Shown one piece after another: positions 10,060-51,941 of a stretch of 64,000 nucleotides of DNA. A program made the translations under genes and the position numbers. Below the pieces are notes generated by a model. The model saw only the letters and a program-made list of their open reading frames with translations. It made no database searches and was not told the DNA's origin. The stretch is from Octopus vulgaris (Eukaryota): contig OX597816.1 of assembly GCA_951406725.2 (NCBI GenBank), positions 57,846,001 to 57,910,000 on the forward strand, written 5' to 3'. The first letter of the stretch is position 1, and each line of letters begins with the position of its first letter.

Positions 10060-12102
10060 GATTTTGGCCAAAGTGTTATCGAAAAGATTGGCGCGTGTCG
10101 CGGATGGTATGATCGGGGGAGGCACAGACATGTGCCGTTCCCGTCAGAACCATTCAGGATAATCTCCATCTTATGCGGTACACTTTAGAGGGGTTTAATA
10201 GTGATTCTGGCAAAGGTGGGGCGCTGGTCCATTTAGACCAATCTAAGGCTTTTGATAGGGTTGACCATCGCTACCTGGTGTTCGTTCTGGCGCAGTTCGG
10301 CTTGGGTCTTGGCTTCCTCAGGTGGATCATTCAGATTTACGACAACATCGACTCGGTAGTTCGGGTGAACGACTTCTTATCGAAGCCGTTCAACATCAAA
10401 CTCTCGGTTCGTGAAGCGTGTCCGCTTTCCCCGCTTTTGTACGTGATGGCTCTTGAGCCATTACTGCGAAAATTGAGCGGCATCCCGAGACAGCCAGGTT
10501 GTAGAAAATCGGTGTCAGCTTACGCGGATGACATCACCATCATCGTAACCGAAGTGGATCACCTACAGAGGGTAGGCAAGGCCATAGAGGTTTACGAGAC
10601 TGTGGCAGGAGCAAAAGTTAATCGTGAAAAGTCAGTCGGCTTGCAGCTCGGCTCCTGGAGAGGCAAGTCGATGCCTCCTGACAGCGTCGTGGGACGTTGG
10701 ACGGAGGGTCCGATTAAGTTTGCTAGGGGTTTGGTTTGGACCAGACCTCCAAATAGAGAAGAACTGGGCCGAGGTATCGAGCAGGGTGGCTGCAGTAGTC
10801 AAGACCTGGTCTTGGCGGTGGCTATCCCTGAAAGGAAGGGCGGAGGTAGCCAATGTGTTTATCGCATCGGTCATCACCTACCGCCTATCCGTCGTTCCTT
10901 GCGCTGATTCATGGTTGATCAAGTTGGAAAGACAACTCTTTCACTTTTTGTGGAGGGGCTCGAAACCGCTTGTGAAACGCTCTACTTGCTGTCAACAACC
11001 GTTAAAGGGTGGGCTAGGGATGCCTTGGCTGATGATGCGCAGAGGTCGAGGCATCTGTGGCTCTACCTGGATGGTGAACGGGTGTGGTCTCCGCAGGCAA
11101 AACTGATGTTTCCCAAGTTTACTAGTTTCGGTGGATGGGAAACCTGGTTGAATCGAAGATCAAAACTGGGCACATGGTTTACGGAGTGTCGCAAGGCTCT
11201 CCTGCTATTCCGTCGCTCGGGCAACGCCTGCGGTGGGGGTTCCACTAAATTATTCTATAGAAGGCTGGTGGAGGCGGAATGTGACGATACTTTAGGGGAA
11301 ACCCTAGGTCTCGATGATAATCAGCTGGCCAGTCTGTTCCGACGTACATTCGGGCCGAAGACCCTGGACAACTTTCAGAAGTCTCTGGCATGGCAATGTT
11401 ACAGAGGAGCAATACCTGTTCGGGACAAACTCGCAAGGCATGGTGGCCGAGGCAATCCGACATGTCCAAGATGCGAGCGGTATTGGGAAACCGTCCCACA
11501 TGCTATTGTTCAATGTTCGGAGGTGTGGGTTTATGCCGAACTGTTGTCAAACACACGAAGAGTACAGCTGTCGACTGAGTCTATTGTAAAAATTGACCCA
11601 CCGGATTTCCTCTCGAAAGAAGGTAAGAATTGTTTTCTCATTGTAGTTGCAATTGCGAGAGAGGTGATTTGGAAGACGAGGCTGAAAGGTATAGAGTCAG
11701 GCAATTTCATCTCTGGCCCTGGATTGATGAATTACTTCATCTTCCACCTGAAAAGGAAAATAGGGCTGGAAAGAAAATGCCTGACTGAGAAAGTGTTCGA
11801 AAAAAGATGGAAGAATGTAGCACAGATGTTGCGTATGAATGGTACCACATAAATGTGGGACATGATGAAACCAAGGTATTAGTGGTGAGGCAGGGCTCGT
11901 GGGGTCCGAGCTAAACCCGACCCCCACTCCATCTGTAATGTCTTCCGGTCTGTTCCATCATCCGATTTTTCAATTTTATTGTGATTCGTAATTATGTGTT
12001 AAAATTTTAAAATTCATCATCTATGTAAAACCATTCGTAAATCTGACCCCAAATCAGATTGTGTTGTCCCCTCTTTGTTCGCCCCTTGTGGGTAATAAAA
12101 AA
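10060..12102 (+). mobile_element. 5'-truncated Tx1/L1-clade LINE (RT plus C-terminal zinc finger, frameshifted)
   Basis: LDQSKAFDRVDH, CPLSPLLY, AYADDIT, LSLKGR, LKGGLGM and CPRC...ETVPHAIVQC across overlapping ORFs 10173-10907, 10624-11106, 10911-11852; ends at AATAAAAAA. Confidence 0.92.
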
Positions 12103-19925: not shown

Positions 19926-22765
19926 CAGGGGTCTCCAAAGTACGGCCCGCCAAGGTTTTTAATCCGGCCCGCCGAGCTGTCCTCCAAAATTATAAAACAA
20001 ATGTCGAAAAACAAGCCTTGCCGAAATCATACAAAAACAAATATACTTTACACCCCTTTTAATACGTTTGACAAATATAGTACAGCAAATAGACGCAAGA
20101 CGACGCTAATTGATTTGCCATCAATTAATGTCTTTAAATTGCGCCGGCGAATTAAAAATTTATACACTAAACTTTAGTGTAAATATAGGTTCTTTTCTAC
20201 TCCCCCCGTTTTAACTGACCCATCAGAACCACCATAAAATGAATTAACTTCGCTATGGAGCTACCTATCATTCATCTTAGATAATAGGCGATTGTCAGTG
20301 AGATGGATGGTGCTGCTTACAATGAAGCAGAGATTCAATTTCTAGCTTTATTGATGTCGCAGAAAAGTCAACCTATTCCGTCAACTGTCGAGAGAGCAGA
20401 TACGACAAGTATGACGTTAATAAAAGTCCCGTGCCTAGTATAATAAAAGAAGACAAATATCGATTTATTGATGTTACCTACATCTCACGAGCGATGAATA
20501 GAGAGGGTTGAGCCTGACGTTGTGTGGTGGTTTCTAATCCTGGTGCAGTCGCCAATCAGCGTGGAGTAAAGTTCGATGCGCATTCCGTCAGTCAGCACAG
20601 ACTTGGCATTTTCGTTGTGCACAAGTGTGAGTCATTTGTCGTCGTCGCTGCCGAAGTGAATGCACGTATCGAGTGACCTGTGAATATTGTTTTTACTTGT
20701 TTCGTCCTTTTACATATATCGTTCGAGCAAAATCTGTCGACCCATGGTAAAAATGTTAGCTCAAGGAAGAAAACGAAAAATCGACTCTGAGTGTAGAGTT
20801 TTTAAGGAACAATGGAACATAGACTATTTTGTCATAGAGTCAAACAACAAGGCACTATGCGTTATATGCACCGACACAATTGCAGTACTTAAAGAGTACA
20901 ACATTCGGAGACATTATGAAAAAAAGCATTCATCACAGTACTACCAATTCATTGGACAGCTACGTAAAGAGAAATTTGACAAATTAAAGAAGAATTTATC
21001 ATCAATGCAGTTTGTTTTCAAGAAGAAGGCTGTAGAAAAAGAGAGAGCAACAAGAGCAAGCTTCCATGTTGCTAACCTTTTGGCGAAGAAAGGTAAGCCA
21101 TTTACAGATGGTGAACTTATTAAAAAGTGCTTGAATGAGGTAGCTAAGGAAATGTGTCCAGAAAACGTAGATTTATTTTCCGCAATTAGTCTTTCTGCGA
21201 ACACTGTTGCTCGTAGGGTTGAACATATTGAAAGAAATATTAAATCACAGCTAAAAGACAAAGCCAGCAAGTTTGTATGCTTTTCTGTTGCACTTGATGA
21301 GTCAATTGATGTATCAGACACATCCCAATTGTTATTGTTCATCAGAGGAATAAATGCCAATTTTGAGATTACTGAGGAACTTGTATCTGTGCACAGCATG
21401 CATGGAACAACAACAGGCATAGATATTTTTAGAGAAGTGGAAAAGTCAGTGGCTGAGTATAATTTGGAATGGAAAAAACTAAAATGCATAACAACAGATG
21501 GTGGCAGAAATATGTGTGGAACCAAAAAGGGCTTAGTTGGGCAAATTAACAAAGTAATTGAGAATTCCGGTGGATTGAAACCTTTGGTATTGCATTGTAT
21601 TCTTCATCAGCAAGCACTGTGTGGAAAGCATCTTGATTTATCATCTGTATTAGATCCTGTGATTTCCACTGTTAACTACATAAGATCTCATGGACTCAAA
21701 CATCGCCAATTTCGTGATTTCTTGGAGGAAATGAATGCTGAGTTTCCAGACCTACCTTACTATACTTCAGTAAGATGGCTTAGCTATGGAAAAATTCTGG
21801 CTAGATTTTTTGAGCTTCGAACTGAAATTGAAATATTTTTAAATGAGAAAAACCATTCACAGGTGTTGCTCAAAGACAGTGAATGGCTCTGGAAATTAGC
21901 ATTTTCAGCCGATTTAACTATGCATCTCAATGATTTCAACCTACGGATACAAGGTGAAACTTCACTCATCTGTGATTTGTACTCAAAGGTGAAAGCTTTT
22001 CGTAAGAAATTAATACTATTTGAAAGTCAGTTAACAAGAAGCTGCTTTACTCATTTTTCACGATGTGACAAATATAGACAGGAAGCTGCCACTCCATTTC
22101 CAAACTTGTTTGCTCAAGATGTCATTTTAGCTTTGAAACAACAGTTTGAAGAACGTTTTTCTGATCTTGATGCATGTTCTTCAAAACTAAGAATTTTTGA
22201 AAATCCATTTAACTCTGTTATTGGAGACTTACCTTCTGAGTTACAAATGGAAGTTATTGATTTGCAATCCAATGACATCCTGAAGGACAAATATAAAGAG
22301 GGAAATTTGATTGAATTCTACAAATGCCTTCCATCCGATCAATTTCTTCATTTAAGGAGGTTTGCCTGTGAATTCATTTCAGTTTTTGGCACCACATATT
22401 TGTGTGAGAAGACTTTTTCAAAGATGAAATACACAAAATCCTGCTACAGATCACAATTGTCTGATGAACATTTAAATGCATTGCTTGTTATTGGAACCAC
22501 TCATTTTGAACCTCAGTTGGACAAAATTTTGTCAGAAATGAAACAATTTCATGTTTCCCCTATTGATCAAAGTTAAAAAAAACATGTTAATTGTTACTGA
22601 TATTATATACATTGTGATTATGTACTGAATAAATAACCTTTTTTAATTATTAATTCACTATTTATTTATATTATTTTGGTAAAATAAATAATTTAGAACC
22701 TTGGCCCCCGTAGCTTTAAAAATTCAGCAATGTGGCCCTCCGCTGGAAAACTTTGGAGACCCCTG
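19926..22765 (+). mobile_element. Intact-looking autonomous hAT transposon (Buster/SPIN/GTF2IRD2-like)
   Basis: Perfect 16-bp TIR CAGGGGTCTCCAAAGT; perfect 8-bp TSD CTCTAAGC (19918-19925, 22766-22773); 2840 bp long. Confidence 0.97.
20744..22576 (+). CDS. hAT transposase, 610 aa from the first ATG
   Basis: Uninterrupted ORF: GRKRK basic motif, zinc-finger-like CVIC...RRHYEKKH, ALDES, TTDGG, CILH, VRWLS, CEKTFS and C-terminal dimerisation region. Confidence 0.95.
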   Translation: MVKMLAQGRKRKIDSECRVFKEQWNIDYFVIESNNKALCVICTDTIAVLKEYNIRRHYEKKHSSQYYQFIGQLRKEKFDKLKKNLSSMQFVFKKKAVEKERATRASFHVANLLAKKGKPFTDGELIKKCLNEVAKEMCPENVDLFSAISLSANTVARRVEHIERNIKSQLKDKASKFVCFSVALDESIDVSDTSQLLLFIRGINANFEITEELVSVHSMHGTTTGIDIFREVEKSVAEYNLEWKKLKCITTDGGRNMCGTKKGLVGQINKVIENSGGLKPLVLHCILHQQALCGKHLDLSSVLDPVISTVNYIRSHGLKHRQFRDFLEEMNAEFPDLPYYTSVRWLSYGKILARFFELRTEIEIFLNEKNHSQVLLKDSEWLWKLAFSADLTMHLNDFNLRIQGETSLICDLYSKVKAFRKKLILFESQLTRSCFTHFSRCDKYRQEAATPFPNLFAQDVILALKQQFEERFSDLDACSSKLRIFENPFNSVIGDLPSELQMEVIDLQSNDILKDKYKEGNLIEFYKCLPSDQFLHLRRFACEFISVFGTTYLCEKTFSKMKYTKSCYRSQLSDEHLNALLVIGTTHFEPQLDKILSEMKQFHVSPIDQS

Positions 22766-22898
22766 CTCTAAGCTCTCAACTGGCACAAAACCACCTCCTT
22801 CAGTGTCACTTCCTCTCTCAGTATTTAACACTGACAATTTTACGCTTTTTGTATTTTTTTTATTAAACTGAAAAAAATAAAAAAAAATTTTTTTTACT

Positions 22899-23151
22899 TC
22901 CAAATATATGCGGTGTGTGTTTATTTGGCAAAAAATAGTTTTTTTTTGTTGCCAAATATATGGTGCGTGTGTTTATTTGGCAAAAAATAAATAGTTTTTT
23001 TTTGTTGCCAAATATATAGTGCATGTGTTTATTTGGCAAAAAATATTGCTTTTTTTTTGGTTAAAAAAATAGGGTGTGTGTGTTTATTTGGCAAAAAATA
23101 AATTTTTTTTTTTTTTTGTTGCCAAATATATGGTGCGTTGTTTATTTCAAC
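22899..23151. repeat. Minisatellite of five ~52-58-bp hairpin-forming units
   Basis: Unit GCCAAATATATGGTGCGTGTGTTTATTTGGCAAAAAATA(T)nGTT with GCCAAATA/TATTTGGC inverted arms. Confidence 0.85.
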
Positions 23152-23240
23152 ATAAGATTTCACATCAGGAATCTTGCAACACATATTCATAAATAAATAC
23201 TACATTTTCAATAAATAAACTTCTAAATGGTCAGCTATTA

Positions 23241-24791
23241 TCATGACTCACTGTTGAGCAAAGTCGCAAAAAAATTTTTCACAAGAGAGCAACCTTCTTG
23301 AAATTTAACACTTGGTAAGATCTTCAATTGGCTTGGTATGTCTTCATCTTTGCTAAGAACCATTATTTTTTGACAGCCCTTATATTTCATAGATAAGATC
23401 TCTTCTATGAAGAAATTACGAATATTAAAACCCTTTGACAAACAAATAACAATAATTAAACTTTGGTTAAAAATCTTTAGCTGGGTTTTGATTTTGTCTT
23501 GTCCATAGAAATTGTCAGTGTTGTCAATGATACGTAAACCAAACTTTGGATTTTGGAACGATTCTAGCTCTTTCCTGTCGGAGAAATATTTAGTAAAAAA
23601 ACAAACATCATAGGAAAAATTTTCATTCAATTCCTTGAAGGTGATTTGTGATTTTAAAGCCAACAACTGCTTCAAGCAATGCTGACATATTTCACTATCA
23701 TTTGAGACAAAAGCAAATCTTAAAAACGACCCGATCCATATCTCTCTTTCTCTGTATTTTACATAAATATCTTTCTGCAGGATAGCTAAAATTTCCTCCC
23801 GTGGCAATGACTCAGTTTTGCTTTTAAGCATGCTTTGGGGAGAACGTGTTTTGTAATTTTGAATATGATACAGCATCATTTTTGCCAGATCTTTTAAAGG
23901 GATCGAGATTGTATTTTTCTTGGTTTGTACTAACTGTTCTTGGGCCTTCTCAAATTCATTTTTATTTATTAAATATAATGCATTCAAACAAGAGATAAGA
24001 GGATTAAATCTGTCAAGTTTAACAGCTTCTGCAATATAATGTGGTTGTGTTTTAGAAGAGATCGAAGCCAAAAAATAAAAGGACATGGGTTGAGGTCGTA
24101 TAGAATTGATCTTCTCAAGATAGATTCTAGCCTTCTCATAATCATTCTGCCTGATGAAATAATTAGCTATTTTAAGTAAAACTGATGTGTTAGTTATTTC
24201 ATCAACTGGTGTGCTAATTCTCCATTTATCTATCTCCAAGTATTCTGCTTTAATTTCTTCATCTTGTGGAAGTAATTTCGATGCTCCATGCAAATATTCC
24301 TCGTACTCTTCAATGAAATCATCGCTCAACTTTCGTTTAAGTTTAGCTATATGTAGCAAAACTTTGCCATTTTTTGAATTTGATTTTATTGACTCTTCGA
24401 AACACTCCAAAGCGCTTTCATACAGTTCTGGATGCAGACGGCTGAGGGCATAACCTAAACAGGCATAAGCTTCATCAATTCCCAAACAATCGCCTAGTTC
24501 CCTGAATGATTTTTCAGCTATTATATGACGCTTTTTTTCCAAACACCAACAAATATAGTTAATTTTGTATATAAATCTATTCTCTGGCTTTTCAAATTCC
24601 TGTTTCAAGAATTTACGAAGAGAATCATGCCAAATATTCTTTTTATACCGTTCTTCACAGCTTTCTGATTCTACTTTTTTCCTAAGAGTCTGGAAAAGTT
24701 CTTCACTGGTTTTATATAAGTCTTTTTTTTTCAAATAGTCAAATATTTTGAAATGATGAGGACACTGATCTAGTGTACACTTAAGATCCAT
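23241..24791 (-). CDS. IFIT/TTC22-like TPR protein with C-terminal TIR domain, 516 aa, single coding exon
   Basis: N-terminal LDQCPHHF; TPR helices EAYACLGYALSRL...ALECFEESIKSNSKN and VLLKIANYFIRQNDYEKARIYLEKI; TIR at aa ~392-512 (FSYDVCFF, FGLRI..D..YGQD.I, SLIIVICLSKGF...FFIEE, IPSQLK); candidate acceptor TTTCAG 9 nt upstream of the ATG. Confidence 0.8.
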   Translation of the reverse strand: MDLKCTLDQCPHHFKIFDYLKKKDLYKTSEELFQTLRKKVESESCEERYKKNIWHDSLRKFLKQEFEKPENRFIYKINYICWCLEKKRHIIAEKSFRELGDCLGIDEAYACLGYALSRLHPELYESALECFEESIKSNSKNGKVLLHIAKLKRKLSDDFIEEYEEYLHGASKLLPQDEEIKAEYLEIDKWRISTPVDEITNTSVLLKIANYFIRQNDYEKARIYLEKINSIRPQPMSFYFLASISSKTQPHYIAEAVKLDRFNPLISCLNALYLINKNEFEKAQEQLVQTKKNTISIPLKDLAKMMLYHIQNYKTRSPQSMLKSKTESLPREEILAILQKDIYVKYREREIWIGSFLRFAFVSNDSEICQHCLKQLLALKSQITFKELNENFSYDVCFFTKYFSDRKELESFQNPKFGLRIIDNTDNFYGQDKIKTQLKIFNQSLIIVICLSKGFNIRNFFIEEILSMKYKGCQKIMVLSKDEDIPSQLKILPSVKFQEGCSLVKNFFATLLNSES

Positions 24792-25139
24792 AATGACTGG
24801 CTGAAATATCCCACTGCTCTCAGTTTTTTAAAGATTTATTGGTACAGATCTGGAGTTTATATGTGCCAGCCCTGTAGTAAAGAAAAGAAAAAGTTAAAAT
24901 TAGCACAAAATGGAAAAAAACAATACATAAAAAAAAAGAAAGAAGATCCAAAAGTGAGAAAGAATTTGGTGATAGGGATTAGAGGTTTTATTAGATTTGA
25001 AGGGTTATTGGAAGGATTCTCACAGACCATGCAATGTCTAACCAAAAGATTCCTTTTCAAATCCAAAACAGACAACTTTTGTAAGAAATGAAAATATCAG
25101 TTCCAATCACCAAATTCAATCATTATCATTGTTTTATCA

Positions 25140-27014: not shown

Positions 27015-29796
27015 TGTGGGATGACGTCAGCAGCTGGGGAGCTGACCGGAACTTGGGGCTGACCAGAAGGGGCAGGAGTGATATGCACGCAGGCAGGGCA
27101 GGATTTGGCTTTTTGTGATTGAAGTAGCCGAGGGAGTGAGACGTGTGAGCATGTTGTTAAGGTAGGGGAGAAGTAGCTGCTATTTGTGGTGTTTGGGTCG
27201 GGCTGCGTTGAAGGATCCATTACTGCTGAAATGTCTCCGTCGAGTGAAGAGAAGGTAGGTGTCCTTATTTCGAATCTCTCGCATACACCACAAGCTATTT
27301 CAGCGCTCCATATAAGATGTCACCACGATGGTAGTGAAAATCAGGATTGCCAGTGAGTTTGAAGACGAGGTGGAGAGGTGGATCGATGAAGGGGTCCTTG
27401 TCCTTTGGGAGGAGAAGGTAGTGGGTGGAGTGCTACCCCTGATGGTGGTGGTGCAGCCTACGAAGGGGAAAGTCAGACCGGTGCTGGAATTCAGGGAGCT
27501 AAACCAGCATATATCCTGTCACACGGGAGGTGAGGTGACGGACGTTTGTGGCGAGACGTTACGTGCGTGGAGACGGTCGACTAAGGCAGCGATGATTGTT
27601 GACTTGAGATCGGCATACTTGCAGCTCCATGTGAGCGACAAACTGTGGTGATATCAGCTGGTGCGGTACAAAGGCCGGACGTACAGTTTAACCAGGCTGG
27701 GTTTTGGACTGAATTCCGCTCTGAAGATCATGGCGGCAGTGCTTAAGTCCATCCTAGGGTGCCAGCCAATGAGGTAGTTAGACATCTGGAGAAGTTTGGA
27801 CTGATTGTGAAGCCACTGGAGTCGATGGAAGGAGAAGCTGCGAAGAGATAGATCGGGTGAGTTGGTGTTCTGGAGAGGGAATGAAATCCCAGAGCTGAGT
27901 TCCAGCGTCAGTAGGAGAGAGCTGTTCTCGGTGTGTGGGAAGCTGGTCGGTCACTACCCGATCGCTGGATGGCTGCGTACACTGTGCAGTTATACCAAGA
28001 GACGAGCGGAGGGGGAGAGTTGGGGCGACAAGGTGGGAGAAGGGACGGTGGCGATGATGCAGGAAATCCTAGAGAGGACGAGAGCAGAAGACCCGGTCAG
28101 GGGGAACTGGTACGTGCCCAAGACGGAATGCGGGACCGTTTGGTGTGATGCTAGCAGTATAGCGATAGGGGTTGTGTTGGTGATCGAAGGTGCTGCGGTG
28201 GAGGACATGGCCTGGCTTCAGAAAGCAGATGACTTCAACCACATCAATGTCGCCGAATTAGACGCGGTGCTGAAAGGGGTGAACTTGGCCCTGAAATGGG
28301 GGCTGCACACAATTGAAATCCGGACGGATTCAGCCACTGTGCTTGGCTGGGTAGGATCGGTGATCACCGGTGAAAGGAGAGTTTGGATGAAAGGTGCCAC
28401 GGAGATGTTGGTGAAGCGCCGTCTAGGAGTTCTAGGAGAATTGATTGCCAAGTTCGGACTGAAGCTGAACGTGGTTTTCGTACCTTCGGAGAAAAACAGG
28501 GCGGACGCACTGACCATGGTGAAAAGGGCATGGTTGGAGGAACCGGAGGAGGTTTGGAAAGGGATAGCTGCGGCATGTCGGTTGGATGACTCTGAACTGA
28601 AGAGAATGCATGCTATGCATCACTTGGGTGCGGACAGGACCCTGTATCTGCCGAAGAAAATTGATGCTGACGTCACGAGGAGAAGCATCCGGAAAGTGGT
28701 CAGGAGCTGCGACAGGTGTCAGTCCATTGACCCTGCTCTATGTGAGCATGAGCAAGGAAACCTTTCGGTGGAGCACAAATGGAAAAGGCTAGCTGTGGAT
28801 GTGACGCACTACCGTCAGGGAATGTATCTCTCCATGGTCGACTGCGGGCCAGCTGGCCATTTGGAGGGAGTTGAGAACGGGCATTGCTGACGAGATTGCG
28901 CAGATTTTGAAAGGGATATTTTTAGAGAGAAGTCCCGTGGAAGAACTGCTAATGGACAACGGGGCGGCGTTTCGTTCGGAAGCATTGAGGGATATGCTCG
29001 ACCGGTGGAAGGTGCGTTGCTTGTTCAGAGCAGCGCATAGGCTGAGCGGTAATGTGATCGTAGAGAGGCACCATCAGACAGTCAAGGCCATAGCGGAAAG
29101 AGGGTACATTCCGCAGCTTGAAGCAGTTTTTTGGTACAACTTGTCTCCCCGATCCGGACAAGCTGAAGAATCTGTGCTGCAGAGAGCTGTATTTAAATAT
29201 GAATGGAGGCACCCGAGTAAAACGCCGGAGGGCCACAAGGAAGAGAAAATAGGGGAGGAAGTCTGGGTTAAGCCACCAAAGGCGCACTGTATGTCTCAAT
29301 GGAGCAGAGAAACAGTGATGGCGGTCAATTCAAGAAACAACGTCTCCGTGAATGGAATGCCGCAACACGTCTTGGACCTTTGCAGGATTGTCGCTTCGTC
29401 GGACGACGATTGTGGAGAGGGAGAGAACGAGGTGCCTAGCCTGAGAAGATCTCGATGCACCAGGTGCCCTCCCGATTGGATGGTGGACTACGACATGGAG
29501 TAGAGAGATTGTGATCTTTAAGATCAGGGTGGCGTGTGGGATGACGCCAGCAGCTGGGGAGCTGACCGGAAGGGGCAGGAGTGATGCACGCGCAGGCAGG
29601 GCAGGATTCGGCTTTTTTCGATTGAGGTAGCCGAGGGAGTGAGACGCGCGAGCACGTTGTTAAGGTAGGGGAGAAGCAGCTGCTATTGGTAGTGTTCGGG
29701 GTCGGGCTGCGGTGAAGGATCCATTACCGCTGAAAGATCTCCGTCGAGCGAAGAGAAGGTAGGTGTCCTTATTTCGAATCTCTCGCATACACCACA
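27015..29796 (+). mobile_element. Internally deleted Gypsy-type LTR retrotransposon
   Basis: TG...CA LTRs at 27015-27292 and 29535-29796; 4-bp TSD CCCC; purine-rich tract before the 3' LTR; RT-RH-IN order; no gag or protease. Confidence 0.93.
27328..29503 (+). pseudogene. pol remnant (RT, RNase H, integrase)
   Basis: KVRPVLEFRELN, DLRSAYLQL, WCDAS, HINVAELDAV, RTDS, NRADALT, HAMHHLG...CDRC, AVDVT, MDNG, IVERHH; stops, frameshifts and an RT deletion. Confidence 0.88.
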
Positions 29797-48442: not shown

Positions 48443-48535
48443 TGAATCAGTGGACTGTAAAATATCTACTGGGACCATAGTGATTATTTTCTTCACAAAA
48501 CTTCCAATTTTCAGGACTTCTTGCATGGTAAGAAA
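48443..48535 (-). CDS. Coding exon E2 of the uncharacterised gene
   Basis: Acceptor TTTTTCCATTTCTTACAG, donor GTAAGA; 93 nt, phase 0-0; FLTMQEVLKIGSFVKKIITMVPVDILQSTDS. Confidence 0.72.
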
Positions 48536-51193: not shown

Positions 51194-51941
51194 AGTGTGT
51201 GTGTGTACGCAGAGCAAGATAAAATACACGATTAATTTCACTTACTGGAAAAAGACGACAGAGATGAACGTCTTGGAATTGTCAAGAATCACATTTGTTA
51301 TGAGATCAGATGTAAGTAAAGAATCATTGTGCAGTGACTGAAGCAAGAAAGGAAACTGTACCAAGATGTTGCCGAGAGATTCCAAAAGAAGAGGATTTTG
51401 GTAAGCCTGAAAGAAAGAGAAACATGATAAAACTTGCAGAAGAGGTATTATATGGACACAGATATTGTGTTATTAAGAAATTTGTTTTATAACCACATGC
51501 TACTGTGTGGCACCTTGGACCAAGGCCCTACATCAAACAAAGTCCTGTGACTGGAAATTGGCAGAGTGGAACAATGTGAGGGAAATGGAAGATTCTTTTT
51601 TGTTCTTAACGGGTATTTAGGGATTGTTGTTACTGAGACGGTTCCTAGTTCACAGCTATTGATGCAGGCAAAGGTATACACCAGTAAAGATACACACACA
51701 GAGGCAGATATATATATGTATGTATATATACACATTTTGTAGGCAGACACATATATATGATTGCTTGAAATGGGGAGTAGACAGACACCTGACAACTGAT
51801 GAAGGGTCATTCTTTCCATTACTTGTCTTTTTTTCTCTCGTTATTTGCGTATTTAATTCATTTGGTTTCGTATTTCTAGTTGTTTACTGTTGGTGGCATC
51901 CTCTACCCATATATGTATATATATGTGTATATATGTATATA

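Follow-up and report, generated by a model that had tools for sequence, protein, structure and literature searches.

The window analysed here, a stretch of 64,000 nucleotides of Octopus vulgaris DNA, contains a 1551-bp ORF that translates into 516 amino acids plus a stop codon and is referred to below as P0001 (Table 1). An ORF of this length had been pointed out in an earlier note on this DNA, and it is present, but it runs on the minus strand, and the plus-strand frame over the same interval contains many stops. The three protein motifs quoted in that note were all found in the P0001 sequence. In 2000 base shuffles, the longest chance ORF reached 204 aa, compared with the 516 aa observed. 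The O. bimaculoides orthologue, an uncharacterised protein of 521 aa that begins with the same start methionine, is 80% identical, and the two are separated by 100 amino-acid differences and four whole-codon indels without any stop, a stop-free frame with a probability of 0.0003-0.003 under neutrality. Furthermore, the ORF was free of internal gaps in contigs from all four sequencing runs compared (X1, X13, X16, and X17, out of 24 runs, none of which is recorded as RNA, so that the run types are guesses). P0001 is a real gene, IFIT-related and TIR-bearing, which nevertheless fails several of the features that define IFITs. It sits just downstream of FANCA on the same strand, the FANCA gene itself (C3:57953565-57992005, minus strand, three Pfam domains in order) being located 44-82 kb past the end of the window.

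Table 1. Features of P0001, its surroundings and its paralogues. Positions are those of the window except for the C20 family.
Feature	Position	Strand	Remarks
P0001 coding sequence	23241..24791	-	516 aa, one exon; start context A at -3, G at +4
Leader	24792..24871	-	80 nt, same exon as coding sequence; in-frame stop here; 1-nt indels in relatives; AATAAA from 24840
Splice acceptor (pyrimidine tract + CAG)	24872..24893	-	score 10.9; three contigs depart from the genome here
3' untranslated region	22888..23240	-	56-bp tandem repeat with AATAAA copies
TPR solenoid, aa ~1-290	23922..24791	-	Pfam TPR_2 below cut-off; fold matches Z 13-14
IFIT-related core, aa 109-258	24018..24467	-	hhalign to six C20 paralogues; holds R118 and K154
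Divergent TIR domain, aa 390-515	23247..23624	-	Atlas model and hhalign to C20 paralogues
E464, TIR catalytic-glutamate position	23400..23402	-	register against TLR TIRs
Candidate late FANCA exon	48443..48535	-	phase-0 donor; splice-site scan; possible upstream splice partner
Further candidate FANCA exon	51248-51406	-	candidate only
hAT/SPIN-type transposase ORF	20684-22576	+	uninterrupted 630 aa; zf-C2H2_12, DUF4371, Dimer_Tnp_hAT; tail to tail with P0001
Broken LTR retrotransposon	27015-29796		in upstream intron; RNase H and integrase pieces; LTRs alike at 242/259 aligned bases
Non-LTR reverse transcriptase with zf-RVT	10113-11852	+	frameshifted
C20 family, L119-L136	C20: 8.78-8.84, 57.84-57.99, 60.18-60.21, 61.64-61.67, 73.27-73.55 Mb		single-large-exon ORFs, at least 18

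The coding sequence of P0001 is a single exon, but the gene is not intronless as had been proposed, since an intron interrupts its 5' leader. In contigs of X1, X13, and X17, which come from three studies with two organism labels, the match to the genome ends at 24871/24872 and is followed by 446, 73, and 1917 unlike letters, respectively. A contig of X16, a run of 1503 million letters that was taken for DNA, continues through this break to position 25127. Because the break falls at a pyrimidine tract and CAG that scored 10.9 in a simple splice-site scan, we place the acceptor 80 nt before the ATG; the acceptor suggested previously, 9 nt before the ATG, scored only 5.2 and is not where the contigs of three of the four runs break. 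In X1 and X13, where the leader is one base shorter, its frame is open; in this genome it is closed, and the leader deletion of X17 creates a stop (read by hand). The 80-nt leader is probably untranslated, because relatives differ in it by one-base indels, none of which occurs in the ORF. The single coding exon had also been regarded as a mark of IFIT genes, but it loses this value in octopus, where the TLRs and other TPR genes are likewise long single ORFs. For instance, L063, L065, L067, and L068, which we take to resemble kinesin light chain, Hip, and FKBP, are TPR genes with single ORFs of 291-761 aa, and single-exon coding thus appears to be common in octopus. Strict ISRE sequences had no match in the 64-kb window (0.42 expected), and no cluster of ISRE-like sequences was found near P0001.

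That the N-terminal part of P0001 adopts a TPR fold was borne out, with a TPR_2 match at aa 205-233 (E 1.1e-5, below the Pfam cut-off) among several weak TPR matches and with fold matches at Z 13-14. When P0001 was used alone, none of the sequence searches led to IFITs. PDB sequence searches returned designed and generic TPRs and no IFIT at E values up to 10; an exhaustive HMMER search of 1.8 billion representatives returned only P0001 itself and three generic TPR proteins; and direct searches for relatives gave O. bimaculoides as the sole close match, with none among longer proteins. In the Atlas, the first match was a 749-aa echinoderm cluster with TPR and TIR (0.95). Two clusters from molluscs, 752-767 aa long, were matched as well, the 752-aa one by both halves of P0001 (TM 0.52 and 0.76). 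The AlphaFold2 model of P0001 was poor (pLDDT 48.6). With this model, Foldseek placed IFIT5 at ranks 3 (E 1.5e-5) and 4, behind two designed TPRs, and IFIT entries made up 12 of the 42 matches listed, with TM values of only 0.22-0.32 and close to OGT and BBS4. VIA, run on the same low-confidence model, aligned 223 residues of IFIT5 (Z 13.4, rmsd 5.3) in a tie with OGT (Z 14.4), APC6, and PilF, and its wide search had no IFIT among the top 50, a result that excludes nothing. The structural check that had been proposed thus favored IFIT5 as the best natural protein in Foldseek, while the low TM values and the tie in VIA kept it from singling out IFITs.

The relationship to IFITs emerged from a family of paralogues on C20, which protein searches of the octopus genome and the TIR_2, TPR_2, and TPR_8 profiles had missed and which a TPR_19 profile search revealed as clusters of long single ORFs. 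Nineteen stretches were fetched, of which 18 are members of the family and one, on C13, is unrelated and was excluded; a weak match on C18 was also dropped as a chance match, since no collinear partners were found in ~107 kb. The search for paralogues that the earlier note called for therefore yielded at least 18 IFIT-related ORFs on C20, a lower bound, four of which are TPR-TIR forms of 733-760 aa, while the other 14 (329-610 aa) stop before the TIR. Two separate regions of P0001 match this family in hhalign, aa 109-258 against the first 430 residues of six C20 proteins (probability 86, E 4.7e-6) and aa 390-515 over 126 columns (probability 85, E 6.7e-6). A profile built from P0001, P0002, and six of the 18 C20 ORFs (A3, eight sequences, dominated by the six paralogues) matched IFIT5 at E 3.2e-14 and IFIT1 at E 2.5e-11, each in a single collinear stretch of ~300 residues; designed TPRs alone ranked above these two, and the next natural protein was CDC27 at 4e-6. 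In contrast, with HMMER profiles of the C20 family, some generic TPR proteins outscored P0001. Because both ends of P0001 match the C20 family, the A3 profile finds IFIT5 and IFIT1, and a TIR fold is predicted, the label of an IFIT-related TPR-TIR protein holds, and by these sequence comparisons P0001 is a shortened, divergent member of an IFIT-related octopus family. The kinship with IFITs is thus supported through the paralogues, although P0001 itself gave no direct match.

P0001 shares with the C20 family a homologous TPR core and a TIR, with 23-25% identity in A3, but it differs in being a single copy on C3 with internal deletions and no intron before the first Asp, and in being ~220 aa shorter than the full-length C20 proteins. 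All six C20 members that were checked have an acceptor immediately ahead of the conserved first Asp and lack any Met before this residue, an arrangement that fits a start in an upstream exon as in the two-exon plan of IFIT genes. In P0001, the ATG abuts this Asp. This difference is compatible with a processed copy that acquired a new acceptor afterwards, and P0001 is likely to be a retrocopy of a C20-type mRNA.

The C-terminal TIR that had been predicted was supported by two lines of evidence even though Pfam gave no TIR match for P0001. The Atlas model of aa 385-516 had TM values of 0.68-0.76 to ten entries, eight of which were aligned to or named TIR, and the alignment to the C20 TIRs is that described above (E 6.7e-6). 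A profile of 13 octopus TLR TIRs aligned with P0001 in the correct register, although the match was weak (hhalign E 0.0036, 32 columns), with a score ranking 4 among 500 shuffles, and the TIRs of the C20 paralogues matched a TLR-TIR profile at E 5.7e-5. The AlphaFold2 model of the TIR region alone was unusable (pLDDT 33). Identity between the TIR of P0001 and those of C20 amounts to only 25%, and the core of the P0001 TIR (aa 401-450) is 92% identical between the two octopus species. P0001 shares the TIR fold and a glutamate at the catalytic position with NAD+-cleaving TIRs such as SARM1, bacterial TIR_2, and the BcTir/Tpr system (bioRxiv 10.1101/2023.05.26.542521). This residue, E464, is kept in both octopus species; within the C20 family, L119 has E in this column and L124 has Q. 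In contrast to the NAD+-cleaving TIRs, the motif around the glutamate is degenerate in P0001, with the usual Trp-Cys before it replaced by Phe-Phe. Separately, four TLR ORFs on C1 (L022, L023, L028, and L029; 102.02-102.14 Mb) break at the same mid-TIR point, with a TAA inside the Pfam match.

When the RNA-contact residues of IFIT5 were mapped through the A3 profile, only some were found to be kept. K150 corresponds to R118 and W146 to Y114; R186 corresponds to K154 only if two four-residue gaps cancel, which depends on gap placement. None of R253, K257, R260, and Q288 is kept, their counterparts being L206, N210, I213, and F240, so that two of the six mappable basic or polar contact residues remain. 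The alignment of A3 with IFIT5 begins at IFIT5 residue 92, and the N-terminal contacts E33, residue 37, and Q41 precede it; the first 100 residues of P0001 are basic (pI 9.1). In addition, ~95 residues are lost in P0001, and two stretches of the IFIT scaffold, the counterparts of IFIT5 ~229-245 and ~325-387, are deleted. It has been reported that K150 and R186 of IFIT5 contact the triphosphate (PMC13197388, in part) and that the IFIT1 equivalents of K257 and R260 are required for RNA binding (PMC3950709, in part). Since R118 and K154 are kept in both octopus species, P0001 may have retained an inner phosphate site, but its outer channel is eroded. With the other four contacts and ~95 residues lost, IFIT-type RNA binding is doubtful, and the deletions argue against an intact three-subdomain clamp. 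The earlier proposal of an IFIT-like RNA receptor coupled to a TIR output is therefore weak for P0001, in which two of the six contacts are kept and two scaffold stretches are deleted.

Compared with vertebrate IFIT5 and IFIT1 (PDB 3zgq, 4j0u, 5udi, 5w5i), P0001 has, through the family profile, a collinear TPR scaffold with basic residues at the positions of K150 and R186, and nearly all of its coding sequence is contained in a single large exon that follows an intron. It differs in the added TIR, in the absence of R253, K257, R260, Q288, and two stretches of the scaffold, and in the position of the ATG, which lies 80 nt inside the large exon instead of in exon 1 as in the IFIT two-exon plan. 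IFITs have been described as limited to jawed vertebrates, with invertebrate candidates rejected, and as effectors that lack a signalling domain (PMC3688568, in part). An IFIT-related, TIR-bearing family in octopus challenges both views. The point of surprise thus lies at the level of the family, which offers a testable route to virus sensing in molluscs, and P0001 is a divergent offshoot with a weaker claim to RNA sensing. P0001 is of interest because it is strongly diverged, lies at an independent location, was missed by Pfam and by direct searches, and carries signs of rapid N-terminal change; with its channel eroded, it contrasts naturally with the full-length paralogues for assays of RNA binding and TIR function. 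The C20 family itself may be covered by the ecTIR-DC catalogue of Gerdol from 2017. The combination of TPR and TIR in one soluble protein has precedents in invertebrates, such as oyster proteins and the Atlas clusters of 749-767 aa. P0001 is ~230 aa shorter than these TIR-TPR proteins, and its TIR is too divergent for Pfam; the oyster class was compared by name only. In line with what the earlier note had suspected, TIR-TPR already has a name as a class, both in oyster (PMC4346834, Fig. 1 legend, in part) and in an abbreviation list for Aplysia (PMC9334734, in part). Passages of PMC7075850, PMC8195603, PMC5549309, and PMC6321704 contained nothing on a TPR-TIR architecture, and literature searches, with subscription journals outside their coverage, returned no link between IFIT and TIR.

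Over codons 187-516, X17 differs from the window by 7 silent and 14 replacement changes (21 of the 22 differences listed), a pN/pS of ~0.48 that is not significantly below 1 (p 0.095), so that relaxed constraint fits these data as well. With regard to purifying selection, the frame has survived 100 differences between species. In a comparison covering a different region, all 15 differences between X13 contig 13 and the window were replacements (p 0.042), 12 of them in codons 1-65, and several, such as C10Y, return to the O. bimaculoides state; the contig carries the same organism label as the runs that match the sequence best. These results, from a single contig, suggest diversifying selection on the N-terminus. 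RNA editing was rejected as the source of the X13 variation, as A-to-G changes account for only two of the 15 and X16 shares both. At residue 10, O. bimaculoides and contigs X13, X16, and X17 have Tyr where this genome has Cys, so that the Cys of CPHHF is a derived allele. Thus the motif LDQCPHHF, which had been likened to the start of IFITs, is present, but one of its letters is recent. Contigs of organisms B and C diverge from the window far more in the 5' part (24208-24872; 38 of 664 letters in X17) than in the 3' part (22 of 1107).

Taken together, we favor, at roughly even odds, the possibility that P0001 works as a cytosolic immune sensor-adaptor, a shortened IFIT-related TPR-TIR protein whose TIR would serve as a scaffold without cleaving NAD+. 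The gene would have originated as a retrocopy of a C20-type mRNA, and its role would be in immunity. The variable TPR end would bind a pathogen-derived ligand, probably in a manner unlike that of IFITs given the erosion of the outer RNA channel. Binding would be followed by clustering of the TIR, which would bring in partners as a likely non-enzymatic scaffold, a reading suggested by the Gln in the glutamate column of L124 and by the replacement of Trp-Cys by Phe-Phe. Alternatively, P0001 could sense 5'-triphosphate or cap-0 RNA ends as genuine IFITs do and thereby activate a TIR that cleaves NAD+ or signals. The conservation in both species of E464 and of R118 and K154 at the triphosphate-contact positions, together with the basic N-terminus (pI 9.1), is consistent with such a sensor. 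We consider it somewhat unlikely, as the loss of R253, K257, R260, and Q288, the deleted counterparts of IFIT5 ~229-245 and ~325-387, the need for the K257 and R260 equivalents in IFIT1 (PMC3950709, in part), and the variation of the TIR glutamate within the C20 family all argue against it. A bolder and quite unlikely version is that octopus keeps IFIT relatives in an ancestral form, sensor plus TIR, and that the P0001 retrogene would still grip the 5'-triphosphate through its two basic residues and signal by its own TIR, with an arms race at its N-terminus and expression from the last exon of FANCA transcripts. If this were true, IFITs would descend from RNA-end receptors older than interferon, and one of these would have become tied to a DNA-repair gene.

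P0001 may instead dampen the full-length IFIT-TIR proteins of C20, or act as their decoy, by pairing through TIR or TPR surfaces without any sensing of its own. Its length, ~220 aa below theirs, the loss of the channel residues, and the 92% identity of the TIR core between species are compatible with this role; furthermore, 14 of the 18 C20 ORFs lack the TIR, which points to combinatorial regulation, and IFITs are known to form heterodimers (PMC3950709, in part). We regard this role as unlikely; the TIR is only 25% identical to those of C20, and the N-terminal clustering of amino-acid variation suits a pathogen-facing surface better.

A further possibility is that P0001 is a weakly constrained retrogene that travels in FANCA read-through transcripts and has either a role outside immunity or no important one. 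FANCA is upstream on the same strand, and the end of the candidate exon at 48443, presumably a late FANCA exon by likeness, is 23.6 kb upstream of the acceptor that is used. After a putative phase-0 splice from 48443 to 24871, FANCA would stop after four residues, with an AATAAA 16 nt and the P0001 ATG 65 nt beyond this stop. The 1917 letters past the acceptor in the X17 contig and a pN/pS of ~0.5 also agree with a passenger gene. In contrast, a frame that stayed intact through 100 substitutions and four indels would not be expected of it, and the candidate FANCA exons had no Pfam or PDB match, nor was the FANCA_CTD domain found on C3; we regard this explanation as very doubtful. Finally, it is scarcely credible that P0001 joins generic TPRs to a Rossmann-like tail and resembles IFITs only through the common TPR pattern, for which the lack of a direct IFIT sequence match, the structural ties with OGT and others, and the rejection of invertebrate IFIT-like BLAST matches in a tree-based survey (PMC3688568, in part) could be cited, because two separate regions of P0001 match the C20 family in the same order and the A3 profile places IFIT5 eight orders of magnitude ahead of other natural TPRs.

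Pfam searches covering 133 of the 202 minus-strand ORFs that lie upstream within the window produced a single sub-threshold match, and those of 65 of the 173 ORFs beyond the window gave Pif1 and FANCA only. The surroundings of P0001, described before as otherwise decayed DNA, are not uniformly so, since an intact hAT-type ORF of 630 aa lies 0.7 kb away and probable FANCA exons lie upstream.
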